Below are positions 13,622 through 64,000 of a DNA stretch of 64,000 nt, piece by piece. Within the stretch, counting starts at the first letter, position 1, and each line of letters starts with the position of its first letter. Source of the DNA: Escherichia phage BB1; sequence record NC_106597.1, one strand, 5' to 3'. The notes under the pieces were generated by a model. It was not told where the DNA came from, searched no databases, and saw only the letters and a list, made by a program, of their open reading frames with translations. The position numbers and the translations under genes are program-made.

Positions 13622-16600
13622 TTACATATTACCAAGAGATTTAAGGGTGGATCCATTCTCATTAAGAGCCAGTTCCACGGCATCTCTTAAAGCAGTGCTG
13701 TTATTCGATGCAAAATCTCTAAAGCTAGCAGCATCCATTGTGCTAATATTCAGAATGATTGGTCTTCCAGAGGTAGTCTTTGATCCATCAGAAAGCTGAT
13801 CATTAGGTGTGGCTTTCATAGGAACCATAGGAGTTACTACTTCGGTACCATGCTCACCCATTTGATAACTAACCCCAGGGTACATCATACCACCTTCAGC
13901 ACGAGGAACAAATGAGTTGGCATTACCAATACCTTTATCACCACGTAGGTAGGATAATTCTCCTGAGCTAGCTTGCATAGATACATCAACGTTCTTCTGT
14001 CGCTCACCTAGGGTTAGGTACTGAGTAGTATCTGCTCCAGAATCTGCAATAGAAGACATACCAGATGCAGAAGATGCTTGAGCAAGAGCTAAGGCACCTG
14101 CTAAACCTGCCGCCACCATCAAAGGAATAGAGAACGGGTATGGTACAGCTGTTGCTGCCTGCATTACTGCCACTGCTGTCTGGATAATAATTTGTTTCTT
14201 TGCTGCGTCTTGCTGGATTTTTAACTTTTCAGCTTCTAACTTTTTCAGTTTAGCTTTAGATGCTTCAGATTTACCATCTCGTTTCTGTTCTGCTGCAATA
14301 GCCTGATCAATTGCACTAACCTGTTGACTAGTACTATATTGAATCATAGAGGCCACAGTCTGCATACCAGAAGCAATCATAGACGTAGTATCTAGAGATC
14401 CCTGTGAGAATTGAATCATAGAGTTAGTTAAATTACCCATGCTTTGAGCTACAGCAGTTGCTTCGGAATTTAACTCAGATAGTTTAGAGATTGCCTGATC
14501 ATATGAAGACATCCTATTCTGCATATCAGCAAAATCTTTATCTGCTCCAGATAGACCAGTTGTAGGAGTATAAGTAGCTCCAACAGAAGAACCTACCTGT
14601 TGCTGCATCTGAGCATTACGTTGTGCTGTTAAAGCTGACATCTGGGCCCTTGTCTTGGCTATTTCGGCATTCCAGCGCATTTGCTCGTTAGCATTACCTT
14701 TGGTAAGTTCTTTCATCTGAGTATAAAAATCTAACTGCATTTCCATTTTTTGCATTTCCCCTGCCAGAGGGAACATGGAAGTTAGAGTATTTTCAAAGGC
14801 TTCTTGCCTTTTACTGGTCATTTCAGCTTGCTGATCCTGACGGAATTTCCATATTTCACGTTCAATTTGGGCTTGAGAACGTCTAGACTGTTCAGCCTCT
14901 TTCTGTTTATCAGCTTGTTTTGTATACCATTCGTACTTCTCTTTTTCAATGGTCAATTCAAGATTTAACTGTGCTAGACGATACTGAGTATCTGTCATAG
15001 TACGGTTATTTAAGAGAGCTATCTCACGATCTACACCAAGAATTTTATCTGTGTAATCCTTGACCTTCTTCTGAGCTTCCATACCATGATTGGTAAGTTT
15101 AAGTTTCTCCAGCTGAATTTTTTCAATTTCTTTCTCAACAGCTTTATTTCCCTGGTTTGTTTGAAGAACACGGCGTAAAGCAGTTTCTTGCTCTTCTAAC
15201 TGTTGCAACTCTAAACGTCTACCAGCTTCCTGAGCTTTTTCCTTATCCTTAGTTTGATTATACACATCAGCTATTTTCTGTTGAACTGCTAACTGATTTT
15301 TAGTTTCATTACCCGTTAGTTTAACGTACTCGGATAAGGCTTGGGAAGCAGTTTTCATCTCAGATAGGGTGTTAAACCCTAAGTTGAGACTTTTAACATA
15401 CTCATCCGCACTCTTACCAGTTCCTGCGGAGAGAGATTCTACATTTCTAATTACCTCTTCAAAAGTTGCACTAGTTTTAGCAGCGGTATCTGTACTACTA
15501 GCTATATTTTGAAAGTCATTAGCTAAATCACTAGCCGTTTTCTTAGTCTGATTATATGCTTTTTGTTGTTCTGTCAGGCTCTTTAGAGCAGCAGAATTAA
15601 AGTCGTATACAGCATCTGGGTCATACACATCTTTCTGTAGATTAATCTGTTTCTGGAACTCTGGATTAGCTTTTGCAGCAGCAGCTCCAGCAGCTTGATA
15701 AGCCGATTTCCAAGCATTGAGGTTCTCTGTAGAATCCTCTACTTCCTTACCAAGTCTAGTTACTTGTAGACCCATAGCCGCTGTTTCTTCTACAAACTTT
15801 TTATTAGCTTCGGAAGCGCCCGCGGCTGCAATACCAACAGGAATACCTTCACCAACTTGACGTATAGCTAGTTTTGTATAGAAATCTGCTTGTTCCATTC
15901 GTTTATCGAACTCAGATTTTAGCTTATTACGCTTATCAAGAGATTCCTTATACATATCTAGAGCTTTATTATAGCCTTCTTCAGAAGCGGCCAAACTTAA
16001 AGCAACAGCACCAACGTTGGTAGGATCTATCTGTCTATTAGTTTTTTCTTGAGCTCTAGCTGCTTCAGCAGATACAGAAGCCTGAGAAGTATAAAATACT
16101 GTGTTGATAGCATCAATTACTGGCCCTAAGTACTTAGCAGCAGCTTGTTGTATTGTTCTTAGTGCAGCATCTGCGTTAGCAGCAAATTGCTCCCACGGAG
16201 TAGCACGTAAAACTTCATCTAAGTAACCAAAACGTTTAGTAGATTCTGCTATAACAGCATTAGCATACGCTTGCTGTTTCTGGAAGGTAGTAAGGCTATT
16301 AATATTATATGTTATACCCGTGTTTGCAGCATTTAACTGTTTAACGTAATCAGCATAAGCATCGTTAAGACGAATAGTAACACCAAGTTCATCCAGAAGT
16401 TCGATTTCTTGTTTAGATACACCCTTAATTACACGGTTAAGTGCGTCAGTCATATCAACGCCAAGAACAGCAGCAGCACGACGAGCTACTAGACCAAACT
16501 TATTAAGTTGTTCAGCATCAAATCCATAAGCGGACGCTGAGGATGCTTGTCTCATAGCTTCTTCAAAAGAGATTGCATAGCCAGCTGCCTCTTGCAGTGA

Positions 16601-28456: not shown

Positions 28457-30229
28457 TTAGGTAAGGCGTTGAACTGTTACTCGTAGTCTCGGTAAGAAAA
28501 CTGCAGAACCTAAACTAACGTGTAGTATAACACCTAATTCTGCATTACCATTACCAAGATTTTTTATTGTATATATAAAACTGTTTCTACTAAAAGCTCC
28601 GCTATCTGGAGTATATTTATAAGCAGAAGTAGTATGGAAAGGCACTAATTTTCCAGGAGGAAGAACTAAAATTTGGTGAAATATAGCATCCCCTCCCGTA
28701 TAACTTTGTGATTTTCTTCCTTGCACCTGAAAAACACTACCATTCCACGTATTTACTGGTAACCCAGCAACATTAAGGTTACCCGATAATATTTCACTAG
28801 TTAGTATAACAGTAGAGTTATTATTTGGTAGGCCTAGTCCAACTGTTGCTAGTGATTTATAAACATTACCAGTGCCCGGATAGGTCGGAGTAATATCATT
28901 ACCAATATAGGCACTAGCCACATTACCGGATAATAGGCGTAAAGGTATTGATGAAGGTCCCCAGACAACACCATTCTCATTACCAATAGTATTATTATTA
29001 GAGTTTACATACCAGGTCTTACTAGCAGAGAACTTATAAATACTAAGTTGTGCTCTTGTACCACTATAGTTGACTGGTGCCCATATAGATCCTTTGTTAG
29101 AGCATACAAATTCACATCTTCCAGTAGTATCCCCAAACACCCCACCATGCGCAGCGTTTACTCCAATATACTCCATATCAGCACGAGAACTTAGATTCCC
29201 TAGAGCATTCTGATTAATAAACTTCCAACCAGTAGTAGATAACTTAACTCCCTTAATAGTAAAGTTGGACGGAGAAATTATTATGTCAGAACCTGTAAAG
29301 GGATTGCTAGAAACAGACATACTACCATTAGAATACCTTAGGTTCAGCACATACCATATAACTTTTGTAGGGGTTACTCCATAACCATCTTGAACTATTT
29401 TTGTATTAGCTGATTGACTTACTAACTTAGTAGTAGAACCTCTACAAACATATCTATACCCACCATCACTAAAGTGCTGTACTATATTGCTAGGGATTGT
29501 TTGTTTGTATCCAGCATACCCCCTAATATTAGAATTACATACATAAAACCAGTTGTGCCCACGTTTACCAGCCCCCATTGGAGCCATCCAGTTAGGATCC
29601 CAATAGTACGTATCACCTGAAGATATAGGAACAGAAGTACTTCCTATAGGATACCCTAGTTGTTTGAAAGTTTCAGCTACAGTAGCACCTACAGGTGCAC
29701 CACCACCTGGTCTTACAACACCATGATAAGTACTATGTAGTACAGTACCGCCAGTACCACTTCTAGCTATAGATTCTTCATGCCCTAGAGAACTATTATA
29801 GGAATAAGTACCTGAAGCTAGACTATTACCAAAAGCAAATCCAGCAGTTTGACTTAAGCTAGCAAATGATCTAAAAGGATCGGCCTGAGGATCGGCCTGA
29901 GTAGAAGAAAGAAACTGCCCAACTTGAGATTGAGTACCATTCAAAAAACCACGATGGGTACCATTAACTTCTATAGCTGTTAGTATAACTCTACCAGGAT
30001 CATTACTCTTTAAGTTAGCTATTGCAGAAGGCATCTGGCATACATAGAAACCATTCCCAGCACTACTTAATGCGCTCTCATAAGTGCTTTCTACTAATAC
30101 GAAGGGCATATCAGAATGAAAAATAGTATTAGTACTAGGGTTTTTATGAGCATTAATATCTCCACCACTAGCAGTATTTAGTGATAATACAGTTTTACCA
30201 TCACTATATTTTCCAGCGAAAAAACCCAT
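28457..30229 (-). CDS. receptor-binding tail protein (pb5/Oad-like)
   Basis: 590 aa Gly/Ser/Thr/Asn-rich protein divergent from the llp-like gene, as oad and llp are arranged in T5. Confidence 0.6.
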
Positions 30230-30254
30230 ATAATCTCCTATTATAAAAATGTAT

Positions 30255-30283
30255 TTGCTTTCATCCCTCTATTTTGCTATAAT
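30255..30283 (+). promoter_or_regulatory. strong sigma70 promoter of T5 PN25 type driving the lipoprotein gene
   Basis: TTGCTT - 17 bp - TATAAT followed by AGATTCATAAATT; AT-rich upstream region. Confidence 0.7.
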
Positions 30284-30314
30284 AGATTCATAAATTAGAA
30301 ATGGAGAGATAAAT

Positions 30315-30581
30315 ATGAAAAAGTTTGTGATTGCACTAGTTGCCGCAGTTATGTTATCTGGTTGTGCACCTGCTCCCAAACCATTTTGTACAGGATTTGT
30401 AAAATCTTTTGGTGGTGTGGGAGAAGAACATTACGGTCTCAAGGTTCAAAAAGTTCGTATTAAGGGAGATCGCTTTCCAGTAGTACAGCTCCGTACTAAG
30501 TTTGGATGGTGGGATCTCAGTCAGTTTGACCTTAAATATGGTGATTGTAAATTTAAACTAGAACAATCTAATTACCTGTAA
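30315..30581 (+). CDS. llp: lytic-conversion lipoprotein (Llp-like receptor-blocking lipoprotein)
   Basis: 88 aa; signal peptide with lipobox LSGC; divergent from the receptor-binding protein gene. Confidence 0.7.
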   Translation: MKKFVIALVAAVMLSGCAPAPKPFCTGFVKSFGGVGEEHYGLKVQKVRIKGDRFPVVQLRTKFGWWDLSQFDLKYGDCKFKLEQSNYL

Positions 30582-30628
30582 TTAGTATAAAACAAAAAGA
30601 CATCCAAGTAAACTAAATTTTTTATTTC

Positions 30629-30967
30629 TTGGATGGTGTACTGGCAGAAAACACTATGCAAGAAAATGAGAAGCCCTTCCAGGAACCCATGCCACTTGAG
30701 ATGAATCCTAGGGCAAAAGCAGTTCATGATGCAATTAATGAAATCATTCAGGATGTCATACAAGACACTATGGAAGATGTAATGGGAACATCATTTCTTC
30801 TAGAAGAATCTGGATTTGATGAAATGATGGATCTCGTAGGAACAGTTATAATGGTTCGTGCAATTGCTAGAATATTCCAAATACCACATTTACGGGAGCA
30901 TGAAAGACATGTCAAACGGCAACAAAAGAAAGAACAGGCGCGGAGAAGTGTACGAAGCGTGGATTAA
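30629..30967 (+). CDS. hypothetical acidic protein
   Basis: 112-aa ORF; 3' part overlaps next ORF in another frame, true extent uncertain. Confidence 0.3.
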   Translation: MDGVLAENTMQENEKPFQEPMPLEMNPRAKAVHDAINEIIQDVIQDTMEDVMGTSFLLEESGFDEMMDLVGTVIMVRAIARIFQIPHLREHERHVKRQQKKEQARRSVRSVD

Positions 30968-31043
30968 CATTTACGGATTTGGCTTTGTATTATTCCTAAT
31001 CTTCGTAGGTTTTTGGTTAGCAGCTATGGCGGGGTGGATCTAA
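30900..31043 (+). CDS. small membrane protein
   Basis: ORF 30858..31043 with likely internal start; C-terminal hydrophobic helix; stop overlaps next start (TAATGG). Confidence 0.3.
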   Translation: MKDMSNGNKRKNRRGEVYEAWINIYGFGFVLFLIFVGFWLAAMAGWI

Positions 31044-31150
31044 TGGAATGGGTAATTATTGCACTACTGGGGATTGTGATTATTGGGCAGTGTATTTTAG
31101 ATAATCACTTAGCTAGAATTGAAACCTTACTATCGGAGAAACGTAAATGA
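31043..31150 (+). CDS. small membrane protein (35 aa)
   Basis: MEWVIIALLGIVIIGQ...; below the ORF-track threshold; ATGA overlap with next gene. Confidence 0.3.
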   Translation: MEWVIIALLGIVIIGQCILDNHLARIETLLSEKRK

Positions 31151-31341
31151 TGGAAGTGGCAGTTACACTAATAGTAATATTAGTCTGGGTAATCCTCATT
31201 GCCTCTCGTATCGTGTATATTCGCCTAAAAACTCTAGAAGCCCAGGTAAAACAACAACAAGTTGCGCTAGAAAAGCTAGTACTACTGCAACGGTGTGATA
31301 GCACCCGTATTCTGCAAATTGAGAAGGAATTAGATGTTTAG
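31147..31341 (+). CDS. small membrane protein (64 aa)
   Basis: N-terminal TM helix followed by a coiled-coil-like segment. Confidence 0.4.
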   Translation: MMEVAVTLIVILVWVILIASRIVYIRLKTLEAQVKQQQVALEKLVLLQRCDSTRILQIEKELDV

Positions 31342-31579
31342 TATTGTAATTGCTTTTATTATCGGGATACTCGCTGGAGTTTTCGGGACGACTGCGGCAA
31401 TCAATAAGCATCGGGAATATATTGCGGGAGTGACGCGGGAGATTGCGGAAAGGGAGCGGAAGTTTGACGAGAAACGTGCGGAGTTTGAGCGGAAGTGGTC
31501 GGATGGATCTCGGGCGTCGCGGAAGAGATTCCGTGAGTTCAGACCAGAACACAGGTTTGATGACCCTTCTATGCGCTAA
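31334..31579 (+). CDS. small membrane protein (81 aa)
   Basis: N-terminal TM helix then Arg/Glu-rich tail; start overlaps upstream gene. Confidence 0.4.
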   Translation: MFSIVIAFIIGILAGVFGTTAAINKHREYIAGVTREIAERERKFDEKRAEFERKWSDGSRASRKRFREFRPEHRFDDPSMR

Positions 31580-31744
31580 TTTGGAAATCTCGAAATTTCA
31601 TAAGATTACACATGGAGGTGTGCCCAGTGGGTCGGGGGAGAATACTTAGTCTGCTAACCGCCACCCCCCGTTACTATTAGCAGGGTAATTGTTTCATCCT
31701 GCAACCATTTTAATCGCAGGATGAAATTATTTCAACTTTAATTA

Positions 31745-32479
31745 TTACGCAACTTTTAATTTCTCAATATATTGTTGCGGGCTGCAACTATATTCTGCGC
31801 GTTCTTCCTCGGTCATACCTTCCCAGCATAGTTTTAAACGGTCAGCTAGGAATTGATAATCATTATCATCGTCGAGCGATTCATCAATAAAGGTTTCACC
31901 TATTAATGTTACACCTATTGATAGAATATCATTAACGGCTTGCGCGTCCAGCGTTTTAAATCCGTATGATGCTGCCGCCGATAGCACACCTTTATGATCA
32001 TCAATCATTGTAAAATCAGCGTTCGGATATAACTGTTTAAATAATTCAAAATAATAAGATTTATATACTGCGTCTTTGCTGTGGTATATTTCGCTAACTT
32101 TATCAGCTTTAAAATATTTATGCAGTGTGTCGCGGGAAAATACGCGGATATTGCTATTTCCTCGACCTCGCAAGCCTTGTTTGCGCAAGAAATAATAGTC
32201 CGACTTACTCATCAATCGAGCGGTGCAAATAATGTTTAAAGTATTTGCATCATTCATGCACTGGCGCATATATTCAACCAATGGCAATAAAGTATCTTGC
32301 ATTATTAAATGATGTTTGCAGGCTTCATTTTTATATTTATTTAAATCTAAATTGCCCTCATTATCAAAGCAAGGCGCTACACGATGGAAAGAATTAACGA
32401 TAGTGCCGTCTAAATCCCAAATCATGACGCGGGAAATATGCGGGAAATTACGGAAAGAATTAATAATAGATTTATTCAT
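31745..32479 (-). CDS. dmp: HAD-family 5'-deoxyribonucleotidase (Dmp-like)
   Basis: 244 aa; HAD motif I WDLDGTIV near N-terminus; length matches T5 dmp. Confidence 0.6.
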   Translation of the reverse strand: MNKSIINSFRNFPHISRVMIWDLDGTIVNSFHRVAPCFDNEGNLDLNKYKNEACKHHLIMQDTLLPLVEYMRQCMNDANTLNIICTARLMSKSDYYFLRKQGLRGRGNSNIRVFSRDTLHKYFKADKVSEIYHSKDAVYKSYYFELFKQLYPNADFTMIDDHKGVLSAAASYGFKTLDAQAVNDILSIGVTLIGETFIDESLDDDNDYQFLADRLKLCWEGMTEEERAEYSCSPQQYIEKLKVA

Positions 32480-32558
32480 TTGTTACGTTCTCCATTAAAG
32501 GGATTTAGTTATTTCAGCATTACCCGCTATTTATAAGCGGGTAATAATAAATTAACTA

Positions 32559-32954
32559 TTAAAGACCATAAGCCAACGCATCGGCAATAAAACTAACATC
32601 CTCACCTGATACGCTGGAACGAATACCAGCACAAGTATATACTTTTGCACTGATCAATTGATCATCAAGGCAAGCGGGGCAAGGCGCGACAACTGCAAAG
32701 GCAAGGCCGGATTTTACGGCGTCGATGATAATCGTTTCTTGCTTCACCGTATCAACATAAACACCTTTTGCTTTAATATGACTGGTTAGTTTGCCCTGCG
32801 TATATGCGAATGTTGTAACCTGTAAAGCGTCATTGAAATCTAATAGATCATCAATAACATGCCCCGCCTCGACGTGGTAACGTTCGCCGTTAGAATAAAC
32901 CAGAACAATTGAGGATTGAGCGCGGTCAAATGGGATGCGATTAGATTTAGCCAT
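32559..32954 (-). CDS. hypothetical protein
   Basis: 131-aa ORF in the pre-early block. Confidence 0.4.
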   Translation of the reverse strand: MAKSNRIPFDRAQSSIVLVYSNGERYHVEAGHVIDDLLDFNDALQVTTFAYTQGKLTSHIKAKGVYVDTVKQETIIIDAVKSGLAFAVVAPCPACLDDQLISAKVYTCAGIRSSVSGEDVSFIADALAYGL

Positions 32955-32990
32955 GTTTATAACTCCAGTTATTTTAATAAGGAATTTAAT

Positions 32991-33281
32991 TTATTTGATA
33001 ATAATCTGCATTTGGTACGGCGTTAATTCACCGTTTACGGGTAAATTATTATCACTCAACCATTCATAAAAAGCGTCATCATCATCAAAAGGAACAACAT
33101 CATTATCACGATAATCGACCGTAATAATACCATCAGTATTAGTTTTAGCGGCTAGGATAGGCCCGAAGCTGTAAACTTTATCGGATTCCATTTCATCCGG
33201 TGAAATGAATGCTTTTTCGTCCAATGTTTTGGGTAGTGTAACTTTCATTTTTTGACTCCTGTAATAGCGGCTATATTTCAA
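32991..33281 (-). CDS. hypothetical protein
   Basis: 96-aa acidic ORF. Confidence 0.4.
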   Translation of the reverse strand: MKYSRYYRSQKMKVTLPKTLDEKAFISPDEMESDKVYSFGPILAAKTNTDGIITVDYRDNDVVPFDDDDAFYEWLSDNNLPVNGELTPYQMQIIIK

Positions 33282-33302
33282 GCCGCTAGGGGAATAATTT
33301 AA

Positions 33303-34967
33303 TTATGCGAAGAATTTACCATTCTTAAAGTCGATCAAAGTACGCTGACCGTTTGCATAGGTAATTAAATGCGTTTGCGTCCAGCTTGACGCGCCAACGT
33401 TGTAACCCATATCCAGACTACCAGCTACTCCAGCGGTATAAACGCCACCGTAAATGCTAGCGGTATGGGTGTGTCCCGTGTTTAGCTTGCCCAATTTCTT
33501 AAACTGTTTAGGATTGCCACGACTGCCGTTAATGCCGTTGTGACCGTGTACACCGCACTCAATGCCTGCAATCTTGAAAGATTGGTCAGTGGTTAGGAAA
33601 ATGGCGTTAAACTCACAACCTGCAACCTTGCGCAGCGCATAATCTAGCACGTTAAAAGTATCATCATGATCACTGATCGCCGCGTAAATTGCAGCATTCA
33701 GGCGGTGATATAGTTCGGCGTTGGCTGGATCGTCTTTGATGTTAGCATTACGATCATCTAACCAGCGGGATAGCGCCAAATCGTGATTAGATTCAACAAT
33801 GATTGTTTGAGAGAAATCACGTTCCATTGATTCCAGCACGCGCCCCGTATCGATAAGATCATCCAGAACTTTATCACGTCCAGCGGCATACTGTTTTGCT
33901 AGGAATACACCGGATGCACGGTTATGATGATTGCGCGATGTAAAATCATGCACGTCATGAATAAACTGATATTTAGGTTTAAGAATATCAAGCAAGCTAT
34001 TTTCGCCAGCCCATGACGCAACGGCACAATCATCATCTAATTTTTCGGCGTGAATATCGCCATATTGCAAGCCTAAAACATGCCCCGACGTTTCATAGCA
34101 TCCAGCAGGAGTAGCGCAAACATTCAGATCATAAAACACCCCGCTTTCATCCATCGTTTCAAGCTGGCGAACAAAAAATTCCCCGTCGTCGTCGAACTCA
34201 ACAATAAGCGCACCGAAGTTATGCAGCGCCTCGGCCTTTTGTCCTGCTTTCTGCTGAATGTAGTTTTTGAGCGTTGCCGTTCCGGTTGAATACATACGGC
34301 GCACTACTTCACCTTTTAAAGCTGGCACGCTTTCAGCGGTAATTTTAGCGTGACCAATTGCCAGCCCTTCAATATTTAAAGCCGTTGCAGTTTCTGCAAA
34401 TCCTGAAAGCGGATAGTCTGCGGTAGGCAAAACATTAATTTCAGCCATGAAAGCAAAACGGCGGTTATTTAAAAACACGTTTTTGCTGCAAATATATTTA
34501 TCAAATGCGGGATCGTATTTGATACCGTCTGCACCTTCTCCATTCTGGAAGCCGTTTTTATTATAAATATACTTAGAAACAAGCAAATCAGCACCGATAT
34601 ATTCAGCGAATTTTTCCAGACTTGCTAAAAAGTTTTTATGTGGGAAAGTATTATTCTGAATCGACGTAATAATAAAGCGTTTACCCTGTTTTACTTCCCA
34701 TTGCTCAACCGTACTAGAAACAATCCCCGCCGCTTCTGGGCGCTCATCGTTTTTAATGGCTTTTGCTACTTTTGCCGCTTTCGGTTTAGCTGGTTTATTT
34801 GCTTCCAGCCAGTCGCAGATAGCGGTTGAATGCTTCGTTGTATCGTAGACCGCTTTTGATATATCGTCGCAGACTTCCAGTTTAGTAGCGCGCAGACGTT
34901 TACCATAGAAATTAAAGTCAGCGGCCATTTTCAGGATAACGGTTTGTTTTTCTGCGGAAATAATCAT
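33303..34967 (-). CDS. A1: pre-early protein A1-like (calcineurin-type metallophosphoesterase)
   Basis: 554 aa; metallophosphoesterase motifs GDIHAE, GHNG, GHTH; size close to T5 A1. Confidence 0.6.
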   Translation of the reverse strand: MIISAEKQTVILKMAADFNFYGKRLRATKLEVCDDISKAVYDTTKHSTAICDWLEANKPAKPKAAKVAKAIKNDERPEAAGIVSSTVEQWEVKQGKRFIITSIQNNTFPHKNFLASLEKFAEYIGADLLVSKYIYNKNGFQNGEGADGIKYDPAFDKYICSKNVFLNNRRFAFMAEINVLPTADYPLSGFAETATALNIEGLAIGHAKITAESVPALKGEVVRRMYSTGTATLKNYIQQKAGQKAEALHNFGALIVEFDDDGEFFVRQLETMDESGVFYDLNVCATPAGCYETSGHVLGLQYGDIHAEKLDDDCAVASWAGENSLLDILKPKYQFIHDVHDFTSRNHHNRASGVFLAKQYAAGRDKVLDDLIDTGRVLESMERDFSQTIIVESNHDLALSRWLDDRNANIKDDPANAELYHRLNAAIYAAISDHDDTFNVLDYALRKVAGCEFNAIFLTTDQSFKIAGIECGVHGHNGINGSRGNPKQFKKLGKLNTGHTHTASIYGGVYTAGVAGSLDMGYNVGASSWTQTHLITYANGQRTLIDFKNGKFFA

Positions 34968-35057
34968 AGTAATAAAACTCCATTAAAGGGATTAGATTAA
35001 TAACGGCAATATTGCCAAATATAACGCCTCAAATAATAGGCGTTATAATTTGCAACA

Positions 35058-35255
35058 TTAATTTAAAGGCACTAGGCTAGAACTAACACCACAAGCAACG
35101 GCAGCGATAAAACAAAGCAAGCCCAAACGTTTTGCTAACTTAGATTTACGTTTAAAATAATATGAATCTAAATCATTTTGAAAATAAGCAAATAATAATG
35201 AGGCCGCCATAATAAACAAGCCTAGAATTAATGATTCAGTAGGAAAGAAAATCAT
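35058..35255 (-). CDS. small membrane protein
   Basis: 65 aa, two hydrophobic helices. Confidence 0.3.
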   Translation of the reverse strand: MIFFPTESLILGLFIMAASLLFAYFQNDLDSYYFKRKSKLAKRLGLLCFIAAVACGVSSSLVPLN

Positions 35256-35346
35256 TTTTTAAAACTCCTGATTTAAGGGAAGAAAATAACTATCGCTAAA
35301 CAGTTATATTATTGCCCCCTCACTAAAAGGGGGCAAGGTATAACTA

Positions 35347-35754
35347 TTATTCGCCTGCGGCTTGTTTTACTTCATCGGCAACGCCTAACAGTTGCGCTAC
35401 TGCGTCCAGCGTTTCAAGTTTTGCACTTTCCAGACTTGCCAGATCGTCGGCGTCTTTGATAATGCCGGAATCAATAGCATGTTTAGCGATAACGCGCACA
35501 TAGTGAGCTTTACGCACAGAGCTACCGCCACCAACTTTACGCGGCTTATCGCTTTTTTGATAGGCTTTTGCACTGGTCAATTTTGAGCGAACGGATACAG
35601 GGGAAGCCGCGCCAACTGCTTTTGCAATCTCTTTTAAACCGTCGCTATTTGCGAAATCTAAACCGTTTTCATTAATTAACTGCTGATACATGGAAACAGC
35701 TTTCTGAGTGTTTTCTTCATTCCATGCGAATTTTGCGGTTTTAACGTTAGTCAT
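35347..35754 (-). CDS. pre-early DNA-binding protein, possibly A2-like
   Basis: 135 aa, basic central region; position downstream of the repeat region and upstream of the A1-like gene. Confidence 0.35.
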   Translation of the reverse strand: MTNVKTAKFAWNEENTQKAVSMYQQLINENGLDFANSDGLKEIAKAVGAASPVSVRSKLTSAKAYQKSDKPRKVGGGSSVRKAHYVRVIAKHAIDSGIIKDADDLASLESAKLETLDAVAQLLGVADEVKQAAGE

Positions 35755-35852
35755 GATATAAACTCCTATTAGTTTAATTTAAGGGATTAGATTAACTTAA
35801 TGTTAATCGTTATATCCCCCTGAAATAAGGGGGATATAAAGTTAACACTAAA

Positions 35853-36104
35853 TTACAGAACAGCTTCCCATTTTTCGTTACGTTGAACAACCTTTACAAC
35901 GTCGCCGGATTTAACGCGAACGTTAAAAACAGGTTTGCCGTTGTTACTACGTTCATTTTCAACATATACCGCGTCGATTGTATCAAACGGCATAAGCGCC
36001 GCGCCTTTAATACGTTCGGCCTTTCCGGTTAATTCATCCGTTTTAGTAACGAAAGGAATAAAAACGGATTGACCAATTTTTGGCGCGGTAATAACGTTTT
36101 GCAT
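35853..36104 (-). CDS. hypothetical protein
   Basis: 83-aa ORF. Confidence 0.4.
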   Translation of the reverse strand: MQNVITAPKIGQSVFIPFVTKTDELTGKAERIKGAALMPFDTIDAVYVENERSNNGKPVFNVRVKSGDVVKVVQRNEKWEAVL

Positions 36105-36332
36105 AATATAAACTCCGAGTTATTTGGTGGATTGTTCCGCATTACCTGCTAGAAAGTAGCAGGTAATAAGTAACAATCCGCTCGCCAGTATAATCGATTT
36201 AAAGAACTCCACGTAGGCCGCTATATCCCAGTTAGGGGGCGGGATGCATTATGGTAAGCACCGACCGTCAAATTTTATCAAGTTATCGCTCTTATCGAAC
36301 TGGGTACATCTTAAAACCTATCGGCTAGGTTG

Positions 36333-36536
36333 TCAAGCGGTTTTTTGCAGTTTTTTATGATTTTCTTTCAAGTCAATCATAATATTTCGCCAGATCATTT
36401 CTAAACCTTGCTGGCGACCTTTCTTGTACTGCGTGAATCTATATTTTACTGATCTTTGTGCTACTGTCAACAAGTTTTTTGTTTTGCTATCTAGTGCCTT
36501 AATAGGCTTGCCAGTGATCAAAAGCGTTTGTTTCAT
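36333..36536 (-). CDS. hypothetical basic protein
   Basis: 67 aa, Lys-rich; first ORF downstream of the DnaA-box region. Confidence 0.25.
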   Translation of the reverse strand: MKQTLLITGKPIKALDSKTKNLLTVAQRSVKYRFTQYKKGRQQGLEMIWRNIMIDLKENHKKLQKTA

Positions 36537-36945
36537 ATCGTCGATTCCTTATAATGAATAAGTTTACCGCCGATAGGCTTTAAGATGTACCCAATTTTTA
36601 AAGAGCGTGGCGGTAAACTTCCCGCCGTGTAGTTCGTCATTGCCGCCCTACGAAATAAATAATAGGGGATTCCCGAAAATGGCGCAACCTTATTTTTGTA
36701 AAGAAACGTAAAGACACGATCCACCGGACGGCGTGCGGCGACGGCCTAAAATTAAAAGAAACGGGCGCGCGAATACCACAAAACATAGCAAATAGGCAAG
36801 TAATTTTTTCATTTATATTTACTTTGCCCTACTTGACAAAACCTAAAAAGCTCGTGACAGCGATAAACGGCTTATCCCTTTATGATGAGATGGCTAAAAA
36901 CTTCATCGCGTTCTAGGGCGTTTTAGGCGCATTCTAGCCTTGTTG

Positions 36946-37020
36946 ATAACTTATCCCCAGAAGCAAAAATGAAATTTTCCTAGTTATCCACTTGACTTTT
37001 ATTTTCCAGTGGATAACTAC
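36946..37020. repeat. DnaA-box-like sites with a 12-bp inverted repeat
   Basis: TTATCCCCA (36951-36959); TAGTTATCCACT (36981-36992) and its reverse complement AGTGGATAACTA (37008-37019) around a TTGACTTTTATTTTCC spacer. Confidence 0.6.
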
Positions 37021-37139
37021 TTATTTTATAAAATAAATTAATTGACTTTTATCTGTTAGTATGCATCGGAAAGATAGCAGACTAATAATTGCTAGGATGA
37101 TAATCATGCTGGTGGATTGTAACGGCTTAAATTATTAGC

Positions 37140-37262
37140 AGACTATTAATCACGGAAAATCTCATTAGCCAACTAACTATTTCATGATATATAATATACT
37201 TATAAATTAATGAGAAATAATAATTATAATAAATAATAACTACAGTAAATAATAACTATAAG
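37140..37262. repeat. AT-rich tract with reiterated AATAATAACTA-type units
   Basis: About 120 bp of low-complexity A+T sequence between the DnaA-box groups. Confidence 0.5.
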
Positions 37263-37311
37263 AAACTATCGGCCTAAGTGAGAACCACTATCATTTAAGT
37301 TATTCACAACG

Positions 37312-37408
37312 TTATCCACAGCACAAAATAATTTGACACGATAGGCGGCGATATAAGGACTTTTGCACAGACTTATCCACAGGTTATTCCACTGTATAAA
37401 TATACAAG
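37312..37408. promoter_or_regulatory. two consensus DnaA boxes plus palindrome (left arm of a large imperfect inverted repeat)
   Basis: TTATCCACA at 37312-37320 and 37373-37381, followed by CTGTATAAATATACA. Confidence 0.6.
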
Positions 37409-37674
37409 GTAAAAAGGTAGTGTTAACAACTGCAATCAATTTTGAGCGGCCTAAATCGCATTCTAACGAGCTAAACGCTGCGGAGTAATATTAAAGTAAA
37501 GCCTTAATGCGGCGGCCTGGTGGCTTCACCGTGTTTTGCTCTTTATTACACCGCTGCGCGGTTAGCATAAAATTAGACGCTAGGCAAGGAAAATAAAAAG
37601 GTAAAATAATATTTGCCTATGCTAGAAAATTACCTTTATCATTCACTCACCGATTAACGAGGGAGGCCGAACAA

Positions 37675-38670
37675 ATGAGGCTGTATAAACCAGATAACGC
37701 AACCGTCTTAAAAGGTGCATTGCGCAACCTGCTGGAGGGTAGCAAGTCAACCAGCATTAAACATTTTATTAACAAGGCTGAAACTATTCATCAAAACTTT
37801 TTTGATGATTATGACGGTTATGATATAGATAGTTTTCTACCACTATATAAGCAAGGGGCAACGCTTGTTTTATATAACCGTGATTGCCATATCTTTACAG
37901 GCAGGGGAGCGGGGCCGGATGCCGATTTTATTATTGCGCAGGGCAATAATATTGTTGCGTATCATAGCAATTCAGGCCGTCAATCATTTAATATAAATGG
38001 TTTTGAGCTTATTGGACTTGATCTGATAAATGGACTTTCTAGTATTGAGGGATTTTTAAATGTTATCTGGAAGTATTTACCCGCTGGATGGCATAAGCCG
38101 GATAATGACGGATCTCAATATACCGCTATAATGGCTTTTGATGGCGACGGTAATTTTTTGTTACCACGGGAGCTATACCCGTATATTTATGATGGGGATA
38201 TTGAAAGCGCTGGTTTTTCTTTCTGGAAAGATGAAGATCAGATTATTGACAGTATAGAAAACCATGCTGTAAATTCTAACACTCAAACTACTGAAAACAA
38301 AGGAAAAAATACCATGACTAAGATTGCTAACATCGTTGCCGCTAATAAATCCGCTGTTGTAAATGCTGCAAAACTGGAGGCGGGTAAAATTGCATTAACT
38401 CAAATCACGAAAGTAGCGGCTAAAAAAGCGCCGTTTATGATTAAAGGTTATATTGATACGCCGATTGGTCGTGTAGTGATCGCTAACCTGCTAAGTGTAG
38501 CGGTTGACCAGTACGCACCGAGTAACCAAAAGGCGAAAGCGGTAGCAGGTGCAGCTATGGAGGCGGCAATGTTGGAAATGGTGCAAAGTTTTAACATCGC
38601 TGAAATGATTGATGAAATGGTAAAAGGTATTGATATTTCTACTTTTACCACTAGCACCGAAAGCGAGTAA
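37675..38670 (+). CDS. hypothetical protein (331 aa)
   Basis: SD GAGGGAGG upstream; first gene of the plus-strand island. Confidence 0.5.
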   Translation: MRLYKPDNATVLKGALRNLLEGSKSTSIKHFINKAETIHQNFFDDYDGYDIDSFLPLYKQGATLVLYNRDCHIFTGRGAGPDADFIIAQGNNIVAYHSNSGRQSFNINGFELIGLDLINGLSSIEGFLNVIWKYLPAGWHKPDNDGSQYTAIMAFDGDGNFLLPRELYPYIYDGDIESAGFSFWKDEDQIIDSIENHAVNSNTQTTENKGKNTMTKIANIVAANKSAVVNAAKLEAGKIALTQITKVAAKKAPFMIKGYIDTPIGRVVIANLLSVAVDQYAPSNQKAKAVAGAAMEAAMLEMVQSFNIAEMIDEMVKGIDISTFTTSTESE

Positions 38671-47273: not shown

Positions 47274-47545
47274 TTTTTCTTTAATTGCTTGACTTCACGC
47301 TCAAAGCTAGCTGCTCGGCGTTCTGCCACTGCTTGATGCTCCTTAGCAAAGCGTGCCTCTTGTTTTGCTAAGTTAAAGGCCATAGCGTTCTTGTTAAGAG
47401 AATCATACATCTTCTTCATCGCCGGAATAGACATTTTCATCAGTTGCCCCTCAAATCCTTGCATGTCGAGGAGAATTGCTAATACATTGGCCATTTCAGT
47501 CTTGGTAAGGTTAGAGGCGTCGAAGTCTTTAGTCATGTTTTCCAT
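47267..47545 (-). CDS. hypothetical protein
   Basis: ORF 47267..47563; the upstream ATG lies inside the conserved promoter leader, so ATG at 47545 after GAGAGG is more likely. Confidence 0.4.
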   Translation of the reverse strand: MENMTKDFDASNLTKTEMANVLAILLDMQGFEGQLMKMSIPAMKKMYDSLNKNAMAFNLAKQEARFAKEHQAVAERRAASFEREVKQLKKKC

Positions 47546-47577
47546 TAGAATTTCCTCTCTCATTAATTTATGAACTT

Positions 47578-47606
47578 ATTATACAGAATTTTAAGGCTTA
47601 AAGCAA
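47578..47606 (-). promoter_or_regulatory. T5-type early sigma70 promoter
   Basis: Minus-strand TTGCTT - 17 bp - TATAAT then conserved leader ...ATAAATTAATGAGAGAGG. Confidence 0.65.
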
Positions 47607-47623
47607 CTGAATTTTTTAATTAC

Positions 47624-48055: not shown

Positions 48056-48085
48056 TTTGTTTCCTTCTCATCAATTTATAAAGTA

Positions 48086-48114
48086 ATTATACAGAAACTT
48101 AAGCATTTTAGCAA
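48086..48114 (-). promoter_or_regulatory. T5-type early sigma70 promoter
   Basis: TTGCTA - 17 bp - TATAAT, leader ...ATAAATTGATGAGAAGG, 23 nt to ATG. Confidence 0.65.
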
Positions 48115-49847: not shown

Positions 49848-49874
49848 TTAATCCTCCTATCAATCTATATAAAT

Positions 49875-49903
49875 ATTATACCAAAATTTTTAGCAAAAAG
49901 CAA
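49875..49903 (-). promoter_or_regulatory. T5-type early sigma70 promoter
   Basis: TTGCTT - 17 bp - TATAAT, leader ...GATTGATAGGAGG. Confidence 0.6.
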
Positions 49904-55739: not shown

Positions 55740-55770
55740 ATTTAATCCTCTTGCCTCAATCTATAAACAT

Positions 55771-55799
55771 ATTATACAAAAGTTTGGGCATCTAAGCAA
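55771..55799 (-). promoter_or_regulatory. T5-type early sigma70 promoter
   Basis: TTGCTT - 17 bp - TATAAT, leader ...ATAGATTGAGGCAAGAGG. Confidence 0.6.
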
Positions 55800-55807
55800 C
55801 TAAAATT

Positions 55808-55849
55808 TTGTTATAAAAATAGCCCAGTCGCAAAAGTGCAGGCTGGGCT
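55808..55849 (-). terminator. rho-independent terminator
   Basis: AGCCCAG ... CTGGGCT hairpin followed on the minus strand by ATTTTTATAAC. Confidence 0.5.
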
Positions 55850-57865: not shown

Positions 57866-57895
57866 TTCAAACCTCTCTCATCAATTTATAAATAT

Positions 57896-57924
57896 ATTAT
57901 AGCAAGAAAAGAGAGGTTTAGCAA
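57896..57924 (-). promoter_or_regulatory. T5-type early sigma70 promoter
   Basis: TTGCTA - 17 bp - TATAAT, leader ATATTTATAAATTGATGAGAGAGGTTTGAA then ATG. Confidence 0.65.
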
Positions 57925-58806: not shown

Positions 58807-59175
58807 TTACATCGCCTGAGTAAATGTACGACTAATAACGTCGTTCTGTTGTTCACGAGTCAGTGCGTTAAATCGAACAGCGTAGCCAGAGACACGGATG
58901 GTCAACTGAGGGTATTTTTCAGGATGTTTCTGCGCATCCAAAAGCTGATCACGGCTTAACACATTGACATTTAGGTGCTGACCACCTTCGATTTGAGGGG
59001 CGACTTCCACTTTGACTTCACGGAAGGCTTCGGGATCGAATTGTGGTGTGATACCTTCTAGATCTTCAACTAGAACTTTCTGTTTAAGTTCACCGTTGTC
59101 GGAGTATAGCTGAATAATCTGATTTTCATGAACAAGGTTAATTACGCCAGATTTAAGATTTTGATATGCTTTCAT
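58807..59175 (-). CDS. autonomous glycyl radical cofactor (GrcA/YfiD-like)
   Basis: 122 aa; glycyl-radical signature [25 protein letters not shown] and GGQHLNVNV...[10 protein letters not shown]. Confidence 0.8.
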
Positions 59176-60270: not shown

Positions 60271-60300
60271 TTGGTTTCCCTCTCATTAATTTATATAAAT

Positions 60301-60329
60301 ATTATAACAATAAATAAGAGAGAAAGCAA
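60301..60329 (-). promoter_or_regulatory. T5-type early sigma70 promoter
   Basis: TTGCTT - 17 bp - TATAAT, leader ...ATAAATTAATGAGAGGG. Confidence 0.65.
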
Positions 60330-60337
60330 ATGAATTT

Positions 60338-60505
60338 TTAATAAAGTTTAGTCACTTCATAAACTATACTACGAGATTCTTTATTACGTTCTATTAAATT
60401 AGCATATGCTTTTTCAGCTTCATTTTTAGTATTAAAGTCTATAACGTGGGAGGTATTCGCTCTATTTGAATAACTATACCAGATAACTACTAATAATTTA
60501 AACAT
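60338..60505 (-). CDS. hypothetical small protein
   Basis: ORF 60338..60532 starts at GTG inside the adjacent tRNA; ATG at 60505 more likely. Confidence 0.3.
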   Translation of the reverse strand: MFKLLVVIWYSYSNRANTSHVIDFNTKNEAEKAYANLIERNKESRSIVYEVTKLY

Positions 60506-61039: not shown

Positions 61040-61115
61040 TGGAGCGGCTAGAGGGAATCGAACCCTACTCAGCGAGGCTTGGAAGGCCTGCGACACAACC
61101 CGTGTGCTTAACCGC
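61040..61115 (-). tRNA. tRNA-Gly (anticodon TCC; Trp-CCA reading not excluded)
   Basis: Acceptor GCGGTTA/TAGCCGC, T-loop TTCGATT, anticodon loop CTTCCAA, encoded CCA. Confidence 0.45.
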
Positions 61116-61819: not shown

Positions 61820-62187
61820 AATTGAAAACTCGCAGGGTTAGCGAAACCATCCTCAATTAGCATGTTCTAGAATACTAATCAAGTTATCTCCTATTGCACG
61901 CAGCTCAAGACGAGTACGAATTTTCAATTGTGGCGGCTCTCAGAAACTCTTCTCCTCTAGCCTTAGCAGCTTACTCCCGAACGCATGTCGGGTAAGTCTT
62001 ACTAAGAACATCAAGTAGCACCGTTACACTTTGAGCCATAGATATATCAAGAAGCAGAAGGACTTGAACCTTCATGAGATAGACCATTTATCTCAGCCGC
62101 TTTATGAGGTATGTTGCAGGGAGTGGATGTTCCCTATAAACCTTTTAGGCAGCCCCGTCTACCGATTCCGGCATACTTCAAGAATTT

Positions 62188-62477: not shown

Positions 62478-62568
62478 TGGCGGAAGAGGAGAGATTTGAA
62501 CTCTCAAGCCGTTTTACCAGTCAGCCACTTTCCAAGCGGTTTTCGTCGCCAATTCGATTTGCTCTTCC
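62478..62568 (-). tRNA. tRNA-Ser (anticodon GGA)
   Basis: 91 nt with long variable arm; anticodon loop TTGGAAA; T-arm GAGAG-TTCAAAT-CTCTC; perfect acceptor GGAAGAG/CTCTTCC; encoded CCA. Confidence 0.6.
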
Positions 62569-62680
62569 AATAATAAGATGATGCCTCTATCACACCAGGC
62601 AGTTACGCCCCGCTGGGATTCGAACCCATTAAAACAGCTCAACCGAGATAGTAGGTTTAATTTACTCTGACCATCAAATT

Positions 62681-62762: not shown

Positions 62763-62841
62763 TGGTGGAGAATAACGGAATCGAACCGTTCTGATGTCCT
62801 CGGTGCAAGCGAGGTGTCCACTCCATGCAGACCCATTCCCC
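62763..62841 (-). tRNA. tRNA-Ala (anticodon TGC)
   Basis: Acceptor GGGGAAT/ATTCTCC with the G3-U70 pair diagnostic of tRNA-Ala; anticodon stem CCTCG/CGAGG, loop CTTGCAC; T-arm AACGG-TTCGATT-CCGTT; encoded CCA. Confidence 0.6.
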
Positions 62842-63079
62842 AAATTCTTTAGTTTACTAAGGCTATTAGCTCGGCGTAACTACAGCACCTTCGCTTCGAG
62901 CGGAAGGAACCGCGTCATCTCGCAAACCCGATACACTATTCAGTTGCCGCTGAATCTAGTGGACTAATCTAGAACTTCTCCCGAATCGTAGGGATCGTGC
63001 TTTTTGGCAGCCAGTCCTAGGTCGAGCTAATACCTTAGTGAACTATGATGAGGATTTCTCCTCATCAATTTATATAAAT

Positions 63080-63108
63080 ATTATAACAAGAAATTAAGCA
63101 TCAAGCAA
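63080..63108 (-). promoter_or_regulatory. T5-type early sigma70 promoter with no downstream ORF (drives a non-coding leader and the tRNA cluster)
   Basis: TTGCTT - 17 bp - TATAAT; leader ATTTATATAAATTGATGAGGAGAAATCCTCATC forms a hairpin over the SD-like GAGGAG; no ATG follows. Confidence 0.6.
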
Positions 63109-63126
63109 CTGCATTTTTCTTGAAAT

Positions 63127-63205
63127 TGGTAGATCGCCTGGGACTCGAACCCAGAACCTTCCGATTAAAAGTCGGATGCTACTAAACCTATTGAGCTAGC
63201 GATCT
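63127..63205 (-). tRNA. tRNA-Lys (anticodon TTT)
   Basis: Perfect acceptor AGATCGC/GCGATCT, anticodon stem TCCGA/TCGGA with loop CTTTTAA, T-arm CTGGG-TTCGAGT-CCCAG, encoded CCA. Confidence 0.55.
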
Positions 63206-63761: not shown

Positions 63762-63793
63762 TTTGCTTTCCTTCTCAACACTTTATAAGGTAT

Positions 63794-63822
63794 ATTATAC
63801 CGAGAATTAAGCGAAATAGCAA
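63794..63822 (-). promoter_or_regulatory. T5-type early sigma70 promoter
   Basis: TTGCTA - 17 bp - TATAAT, leader ...AAGTGTTGAGAAGGAAAGCAAA then ATG. Confidence 0.6.
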
Positions 63823-63971
63823 ATGAATTTTTAATAAATTTACTTATTGTGTAGGCCACCTGGAGGCTACCAACCCCACGGCTGACAAAGAAGTTTGCGA
63901 GACTTCTCTTAACTGCCAGAATAGACCCGCCGATCTATCGGAACCTACTCAATAAGTAAACTTTATAGTAT

Positions 63972-64000
63972 CATTCTAGACAGGACTCGAACCTGCTATC
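63972..64000 (-). tRNA. partial tRNA (3' half only; 5' part beyond window end)
   Basis: T-arm ACAGGACTCGAACCTGC nearly identical to that of the tRNA-Pro gene, followed by a 7-nt acceptor strand; no encoded CCA. Confidence 0.3.

Follow-up and report, generated by a model that had tools for sequence, protein, structure and literature searches.

What does a phage transcribe from a promoter inside its tRNA cluster when no open reading frame (ORF) follows it? This question is raised by Escherichia phage BB1 (NC_106597.1). We have analyzed a stretch of 64,000 nucleotides (nt) of this DNA, called here the window, which corresponds to a T5-like phage (Tequintavirus). Its tRNA cluster is found on the minus strand: ARAGORN detects 12 tRNA genes at 59.4–63.6 kb, every one on this strand. 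The interval in question lies between tRNA-Lys (63127–63205, minus strand), its upstream neighbour, and tRNA-Ala(UGC) (62763–62841, minus strand, detected by ARAGORN). A previous reading, made from the sequence alone, had proposed a structured leader RNA which precedes the tRNA cluster. tRNA-Ala is in fact directly downstream, but the interval is located within the cluster, since tRNA-Lys is found upstream.

The interval encodes the homologue of RNA2H of phage T5, a structured non-coding RNA of ~170–200 nt. The existence of this RNA is already known from the T5 annotation, it is not a new discovery. We have added a fold backed by covariation, with one or two pseudoknots, a wider distribution in the Demerecviridae and a model of ribonuclease (RNase) III-type processing. 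The best explanation overall, which we consider quite probable, is an autonomous, compact stable RNA, cut from an early transcript within its closing stem (P1) and probably acting in trans.

Identification of RNA2H

The T5 record (AY543070) includes a misc_RNA, rna2H, 172 nt long, whose product RNA2H is described as a "stable RNA with unknown functions". Positions 1–172 of T5 RNA2H align to window positions 63032–62861 with 98.3% identity (E = 4e-83). Phage DT571/2 (NC_047749) bears the same annotation. The coordinates of these two records place the 172 nt equivalent at 62861–63032 on the minus strand, with U63032 as the 5′ end and C62861 as the 3′ end. The discrete stable small RNA which had been suspected from the sequence is thus annotated as stable at the homologous position of T5. 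The gene order also coincides: T5 has a regulatory feature ("promoter P13b"), RNA2H, tRNA-Ala and tRNA-Leu, and the window has the same promoter, RNA and downstream tRNAs at the same locus. T5 differs by an additional tRNA-Val, placed after tRNA-Lys and before the promoter, and by a tRNA-Ala which is syntenic but quite divergent in sequence. By contrast, its promoter, leader hairpin and RNA are nearly identical to those of the window. In the window, tRNA-Ala is part of the same transcript and begins 8 nt past the end of P1.

The 285 nt around the interval show 100% identity to Salmonella phage PS3-1 and 98–99% identity to many T5-like phages, T5 variants included. Over its full length, the element shows 98–100% identity to T5-like phages. 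A blastn search with the structured part matched 425 phage records, all of them T5-like, and scans of IMG/VR and JGI metagenomes gave almost solely near-identical T5-like copies. No similarity was found on either strand in 5,426 complete Escherichia coli genomes, and a strict pattern based on P1 found nothing in 185,579 GTDB species genomes. Rfam 15 gives no match to the interval at the gathering threshold. With E values up to 10, chance-level matches to small nucleolar RNAs and small RNAs (sRNAs) appear at the promoter/leader end (63026–63121) alone, none in the RNA body.

RNA2H has no conserved ORF, it is non-coding. There are no ATG-initiated ORFs on the sense strand, and the longest ORFs starting with TTG or GTG have 19, 18 and 13 codons. 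The previous statement that no ORF exceeds 12 codons was thus slightly too strong, although correct in substance. In T5-like copies the length of stop-free runs varies between 21 and 63 codons, and the frame is not preserved by the indels, which have 1, 2, 24, 26 and 27 nt.

Hypothetical coding sequences (CDSs) have been annotated over the RNA2H locus in OP594723 (UYL23141.1), OR896820 (WWD10900.1), MH830339 (CPT_Stubb_084) and other records; PS3-1, Stokescottia and Stubb are among the affected phages. They correspond to 62794–62967 on the plus strand of the window, and are mostly antisense and extend into tRNA-Ala. Their frame is not conserved among relatives, so they are artefacts of annotation.

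The closing stem

P1 has 22 base pairs (bp), interrupted by a bulged G (62863) and by a single C·A mismatch (63040/62855). All coordinates of the RNA refer to the minus strand. The 5′ arm (63023–63045) contains P1a (63041–63045), the mismatched C (63040), P1b (63033–63039) and P1c (63023–63032). It pairs with the 3′ arm (62850–62873), formed by P1c (62864–62873), the bulged G, P1b (62856–62862), the mismatched A (62855) and P1a (62850–62854). The sequence-only reading had described a 10-bp long-range helix enclosing roughly 145 nt with further hairpins. Such a helix is present and the hairpins are found inside, but the second arm had been placed 4 nt off, at 63019–63029: The exact pairing is 62864–62873 with 63023–63032, the helix is longer (22 bp) and 149 nt are enclosed.

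Exact long-range inverted repeats of 10 bp are not beyond chance by themselves, as the window contains 23 of them and shuffled sequences about 15. The fold of the 229 nt transcript has an energy of −85.3 kcal/mol (z = −5.7), and none of 200 shuffled sequences is as stable.

Covariation in distant phages

We have aligned 34 distinct T5-like copies and built a covariance model, R1, from them. In this alignment 98% of the cells are paired, and 14 pairs are changed on both sides. When the partners are slid by 1–3 columns, only 28–43% are paired. P1 is almost invariant in these copies, with 99% of its cells paired, and the 5′ strand and central core of the RNA vary as little.

The model detects homologues outside this group. 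A full-length match (55 bits, E = 6e-18) is found in Providencia phage PSTCR5 (Priunavirus), and four matches at 35–44 bits in the Proteus phages Stubb, RP7, "phage 1" and PM135 (Novosibvirus). With R1, the scores of the reverse strands are much lower. The identity of the core sequence across the three lineages is too low to be detected by blastn. When the helices are segmented by hand, all of them are paired, including a pseudoknot (PK1, see below). The inner 10 bp of P1, UAUUAGCUCG/CGAGCUAAUA in the window, are UAUAUGUAUA/UAUACAUAUA, UAUGUGUAUA/UAUACACAUA or UAUGUGUGC/GCACACAUA in the remote homologues, all of which pair. The middle segment is AUUAAAG/CUUUAAU, as compared to ACUAAGG/CCUUAGU in the window, and pairing is also kept. 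The bulged G and its flanking G-C and U-A pairs are found in all three lineages.

A 20-sequence alignment covering the three lineages has 32 of its 51 pairs changed on both sides. In P1 this is the case for 9 of 22 pairs, with 99.1% of cells paired. Overall, 96% of the cells are paired, against 30–44% with slid partners, and in 500 shuffles none of the five measures attains its observed value. Once the Providencia and Proteus homologues are included, P1 thus shows the compensatory changes which had been suggested as a check. These comparisons show that the proposed fold is kept by compensatory changes in Tequintavirus/Epseptimavirus, Priunavirus and Novosibvirus phages. No R1 match was found in 40 kb of the Vibrio T5-like phage KIT04, which hold its tRNA cluster.

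Some unannotated gaps in these genomes should also be mentioned. KIT04 (L048) has a 520 nt gap at 15027–15547, from tRNA-Lys to tRNA-Glu/Ala, the same relative position as RNA2H, with no R1 match. Other gaps in the tRNA cluster of PSTCR5 (L047), at 9260–9552, 11135–11517 and 15046–15508, are also unannotated and have no R1 match. The long gaps in both phages may hold unrelated stable RNAs.

Core hairpins and pseudoknots

P1 encloses four hairpins (Pb, Pc, Pd and Pe) and several conserved single strands. Pc (62955–62973) is formed by UCUAG and CUAGA, with a 9 nt loop, AUUAGUCCA, which supplies one strand of a pseudoknot (PK1). Four substitutions found in UTK0009, SE20 and SB13 (AG to GA, CU to UC) are exactly compensatory for this stem: Pairs 107–119 and 108–118 switch from AU/GC to GC/AU in these three copies. 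The remote homologues have GUGAGA/UCUCAC, GGGA/UCCC or GGG/CCC instead. The RNAalifold consensus proposed a different pairing, CUAGGACU with AGUUCUAG and CACUA with UAGUG. We have dropped it in favour of Pc and PK1, because the substitutions in UTK0009, SE20 and SB13 are compensatory only in Pc and produce two mismatches in the alternative, and because the alternative is unable to form in the Providencia and Proteus homologues.

Pd (62939–62954) is formed by UUCAG and CUGAA, with a CGGCAA loop which includes a conserved GGC. All five of its pairs are changed on both sides in remote homologues, whose loop retains (U)UGGC(G/A). It is followed by an unpaired joiner, UAGUGUAUCGGGUUU (62924–62938), nearly invariant in the 34 T5-like copies and partly retained (UA...GGGU/GGUU) in Providencia and Proteus phages.

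The other two hairpins are peripheral and variable. Pb (62979–62994) has the stem UCCC/GGGA in the window. Epseptimavirus-type copies have UUGCA/UGCAA stems with inserted hairpins of 24–27 nt, in three different sequences which all pair, and the stems of the remote homologues are CUGC/GCAG, ACUC/GAGU and UCUA/UAGA. Pe (62874–62923) is a long hairpin with a GCG/CGC base. In the 34 copies, pair 155–203 is found as C-G, U-A and A-U, and at pair 165–195 the successive steps C-G, U·G and U-A are seen. Between haplotypes, seven of the 11 inner pairs are changed on both sides. Many Pe pairs are G·U, and each of these would turn into a C·A mismatch if the opposite strand were transcribed. The structure is therefore specific to the minus-strand transcript.

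Pb and Pe are found as discrete alternative versions, which are combined independently between phages, and each version still forms a hairpin. For example, oselot has a window-type Pb and an alternative Pe, while UTK0009 has an alternative Pb and a near-window Pe. Such reassortment implies recombination inside this RNA gene of ~200 nt.

PK1 is formed by GGACU (63013–63017) and AGUCC (62961–62965) in the Pc loop. It is 100% paired in the 34 sequences. In remote homologues it is GAACC/GGUUU (PSTCR5, PM135) or GAACU/GGUUC (Stubb), so that two positions are changed on both sides, with G·U intermediates. This pattern supports PK1 as a real pseudoknot. A second pseudoknot, PK2, is probable: UGCC (63006–63009), in a conserved GCCAA-rich linker, would pair with GGCA (62945–62948) in the Pd loop. 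Four to six contiguous pairs are possible in every lineage (UGCC/GGCA, UGCCAA/UUGGCG, CGCCAA/UUGGCG and CGCCA/UGGCG), with one change from U-A to C-G.

Processing and possible function

We propose that the leader hairpin, as well as tRNA-Ala and tRNA-Leu on the 3′ side, would also be part of the primary transcript. The two strands of P1 would be cut in the manner of RNase III, staggered by 2 bp, to free a 172 nt RNA. Its ends would be clamped by a 10-bp helix, which would explain the stability of RNA2H. After the cut, pre-tRNA-Ala would keep a short 5′ leader, to be removed by RNase P. The mature RNA would then most likely act in trans as a protein-binding decoy or scaffold, in host takeover or counter-defence: This is the weakest step.

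The position of the annotated ends is consistent with this model. U63032 and C62861 are found on opposite strands of P1, with an offset of 2 bp plus the conserved bulged G, and the sequence at both ends is conserved in all three lineages (A-R-G/UAU and AUAGC-Y/UU, where the slash marks the end). The 19 nt 3′ trailer is paired to the leader, therefore exonucleases alone would be unable to make the 3′ end. P1, with 22 bp, one bulge and one mismatch, has the length expected of an RNase III substrate, about two turns (20 bp or more). We infer from this geometry that the ends may be produced by an RNase III-type cut.

Bacterial rRNA precursors offer a parallel: The stems flanking the rRNAs are cut by RNase III. 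In both cases the sequences on either side of the RNA form a helix of at least two turns. The ends annotated for RNA2H, which lie on opposite strands with a 2-bp stagger, would fit such a cut, although RNase III cleavage is putative in our case. The enclosed RNA is different, an rRNA in one case and an RNA of about 150 nt in the other.

If P1 were only a processing site, it would act purely in cis, as an RNase III site or insulator which separates the message before it from the tRNAs or ORF that follow, and the core would be a by-product lacking any function. P1 is a long, perfectly conserved double-stranded stem between transcription units, and the element is found between two CDSs, between a CDS and a tRNA or between a promoter and a tRNA, depending on the phage. 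RNase III has also been reported in the maturation of the T4 tRNA cluster (McClain 1979, as cited in PMC4810235). However, a core of 149 nt is not needed for a processing stem. In addition, this core has unpaired segments which do not vary, conserved loop motifs and pairings between loops and strands (PK1 and the probable PK2), all maintained in the three lineages, and the T5 record calls the excised RNA stable. We consider this explanation unlikely.

The invariant unpaired segments, the conserved loop motifs and the pseudoknotted core argue for a specific partner. A mature RNA acting in trans on a protein is the most likely function, although this is the weakest step of our proposal. More tentatively, RNA2H might be the founding member of an undescribed class of phage functional RNAs, found in at least three Demerecviridae lineages, and not an inert by-product. 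Such RNAs could be decoys or inhibitors of a host nuclease or defence system, or have an aptamer-like or ribozyme-like activity. This is possible, but we would not call it likely. As shown recently, neighbouring T5 tRNAs are able to neutralise host defences such as PARIS (PMC11464382), and neutralisation of retron Eco7 by T5 tRNAs has also been reported (cited in PMC10644984). A conserved structured RNA found beside counter-defence tRNAs is a reasonable candidate for an accessory role in host takeover or counter-defence.

Several points weigh against an RNA cut within P1 and acting in trans. The same ends could arise, in principle, from an RNase P-like 5′ cut followed by 3′ trimming. Our literature searches found no description of RNA2H, and the basis for its annotated ends and for the word "stable" could not be traced; the ends may have been set by analogy with tRNA-like RNAs. 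As P1 is invariant within the T5-like phages, its covariation comes from the five sequences of two remote lineages. The 20-sequence alignment (A5) was fitted to the model, though the P1 arms align unambiguously. PK2 is mismatched in three T5-like copies (L036, L037 and the metagenomic L039). Finally, there is no conserved neighbouring protein gene that hints at a partner.

A likeness of the outer P1 arms (GUUCACU...CUUAGUAAAC) to a CRISPR type I-F repeat would have pointed to an RNA anti-CRISPR. We have dropped it as a coincidence, because it is absent in the Providencia and Proteus homologues (GUUGAUU...) and the repeat hairpin is missing. Salmonella is also not known to have type I-F systems, which was another argument against this likeness.

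Comparison with other stable RNAs

The sequence-only reading compared the locus with the stable species RNAs of T4. The context is alike: T4 species 1 (rnaC) and species 2 (rnaD), like RNA2H, are small stable RNAs found in a phage tRNA cluster and co-transcribed with tRNAs. The comparison does not extend to homology, as R1 with its filters off gives only short matches (12 bits or less) in the T4 tRNA region, none of them covering rnaC or rnaD. The structures also differ. The T4 rnaC is tRNA-like, with a canonical T-arm which RNA2H does not have, and the T4 stable RNAs abut tRNAs end to end, while RNA2H is enclosed by a long leader-trailer stem.

T5 itself contains other stable RNAs (RNAI, RNAIII, RNAIV, RNA1, RNA2 and RNA3). 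They are found in the same region, are also annotated with "unknown functions", and have terminal helices with short 3′ overhangs, as RNA2H does. Nevertheless, none of them resembles RNA2H in sequence. T-arms are found in RNA1 and RNA2, and the annotation of RNA3 is that of a putative tRNA-like RNA, whereas RNA2H is not tRNA-like. RNA2H is longer than the others, and no other T5 stable RNA is directly preceded by a promoter of its own. T5 and its relatives have several annotated stable RNAs in the tRNA region which have no Rfam family, and we found no description of them in the literature searched.

The existence of these neighbours raises the question of whether RNA2H might also be tRNA-like, as T5 RNA1, RNA2 or RNA3. 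P1c would then be an acceptor-like helix, the 5′ end would be made by RNase P, and a CCA-adding enzyme would complete the terminal GCC to GCCA. The location in a tRNA cluster agrees with this, and so does the terminal helix with its 3 nt 3′ overhang, GCC: T5 RNAI ends in GCCA and RNA3 in ACCA. The 5′ UAGCUC also resembles the start of a tRNA D-stem. On the other hand, ARAGORN makes no call and Rfam gives no match to the tRNA clan in 62842–63126, even with E values up to 10. There is no T-arm of the GGUUCGAAUCC type, unlike T5 RNA1 and RNA2 or T4 rnaC, and the Providencia and Proteus homologues have a GCU overhang in place of GCC. In the precursor, the leader would also pair with the overhang, an unfavourable situation for RNase P. 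We regard a tRNA-like RNA as highly unlikely.

Promoter and neighbouring genes

The promoter proposed at 63080 could be recognized. It is a T5-type early promoter (63080–63108, minus strand), with a −35 box TTGCTT (63103–63108), a 17 nt spacer and a −10 box TATAAT (63080–63085). It is nearly identical to its T5 counterpart and forms the core of a block (about 63054–63128) which corresponds one to one to the block annotated as "promoter P13b" in T5. A generic sigma-70 scan did not pick it up, because TTGCTT agrees with TTGACA at only three of six positions. Transcription presumably starts near 63073, if the layout is that of the T5 PN25 promoter.

The transcript would begin with a leader hairpin, UGAUGAGGA-GAAA-UCCUCAUCA (63046–63067, minus strand), which has a 9-bp stem and a GAAA loop. 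Its 5′ arm holds GAGGAG, so the sequestered Shine-Dalgarno-like motif that had been noticed before is present. GAGGAG is the ribosome-binding box of a promoter cassette, which is paired in this phage and has no ORF behind it. This T5 early-promoter cassette consists of −35 and −10 boxes followed by a conserved downstream box ending in a GAGGAG-like ribosome-binding site, and at least seven further copies are found in the window: 60282–60339, 49854–49903, 57877–57909, 47544–47616, 48061–48106, 55756–55812 and 63768–63832, all on the minus strand. Only the 5′ half of the leader hairpin is common to other promoter copies in the window. We assign the hairpin to the cassette and not to the conserved RNA, because the conserved unit begins and ends exactly with P1. 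Both promoter and hairpin are missing in relatives such as chee130_1, phiR2-01, L023 and L046.

The cassette copies also account for the four places per record found in a similarity search, which could be mistaken for paralogues of the RNA: RNA2H is single-copy in each genome. Repeats of this kind have been reported as the cause of large deletions in the "del-1" tRNA region (PMC12483538).

The neighbours of RNA2H are not constant. In some relatives (chee130_1, phiR2-01 and others) the RNA is found directly after a CDS, with no promoter or leader hairpin. The downstream gene is tRNA-Ala in most phages, but Eps7, NR01, PSTCR5 and the Proteus phages have a small, unrelated ORF in this place. The flanking ORFs have no homology to one another between phages. 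This comparison shows that RNA2H is a self-contained, portable module, whose flanking genes and promoter vary between phages. The link with the tRNAs proposed by the sequence-only reading holds in so far as the RNA is directly upstream of tRNA-Ala here. As promoter and neighbours vary, its description as a leader or a tRNA-processing scaffold was the weaker half of that proposal.

The same variation bears on a regulatory leader, riboswitch or self-cleaving ribozyme which would govern the downstream tRNAs. The element is promoter-proximal in this phage, upstream of tRNA-Ala and tRNA-Leu, and aptamers and ribozymes typically have compact, pseudoknotted folds in which unpaired bases are conserved. 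But the downstream gene may be tRNA-Ala, an unrelated small ORF or a tRNA-Leu after an ORF, there is no alternative between terminator and antiterminator after the element, and no Rfam riboswitch or ribozyme family matches with E values up to 10. Such a role seems very improbable, even more so than a tRNA-like RNA. As for a locus which does not act as RNA, the perfect 22-bp inverted repeats flanking a segment with two peripheral parts swapped among phages, the recombination and deletion hot-spot in which it lies and the hypothetical CDSs annotated in PS3-1, Stokescottia and Stubb might suggest a DNA-level inverted repeat (the ends of a mobile element, or a site of homing or recombination), or else a small protein-coding gene on either strand, but we give practically no credit to this idea in view of the compensatory changes in every helix, the G·U intermediates which pair on the minus strand only, the single copy per genome, its absence from the E. 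coli genomes and 185,579 GTDB species genomes searched, and the lack of conservation of ORF length and frame.

Two T5 deletions which span the locus, 29191–32442 and 30661–38625, are viable (PMC11464382), and the region is a deletion hot-spot (PMC12483538). The function of an RNA2H acting in trans would be accessory, because phages without the region still grow in the laboratory.

Other features of the region

The window contains five further T5 stable RNAs, at 61821–62182, 63848–63948 and 63971–64000, all on the minus strand, none of which is called by ARAGORN or Rfam. RNAIII (61821–61926) is 100% identical to T5, RNAI (61931–62037) 89% and RNAIV (63848–63948) 98%. RNA1 (62038–62182), with 85% identity to T5, is tRNA-like. 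Only the 3′ end of RNA2 is included (63971–64000), as judged by its T5 counterpart. The closing stems of RNAIII and RNAIV correspond to the inverted repeats I12 and I8.

Some tRNA genes on the minus strand were missed by ARAGORN. One is tRNA-Gly(UCC) at 61040–61115, 100% identical to the T5 gene. Another is a tRNA-Ser(GGA)-like gene at 62482–62568, for which Rfam gives a weak tRNA-Sec match alone. A 110 nt gap at 62571–62680 (minus strand) contains a T-arm-like GGGTTCGAATCCC, yet no tRNA is called there.

Just downstream of the tRNA cluster, at 58807–59175 on the minus strand, there is a gene for a GrcA-like glycyl-radical protein of 122 amino acids, a "spare part" for pyruvate formate-lyase. 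Homologues of this protein are found by tblastn in 1,583 phage records, T4-like phages among them.

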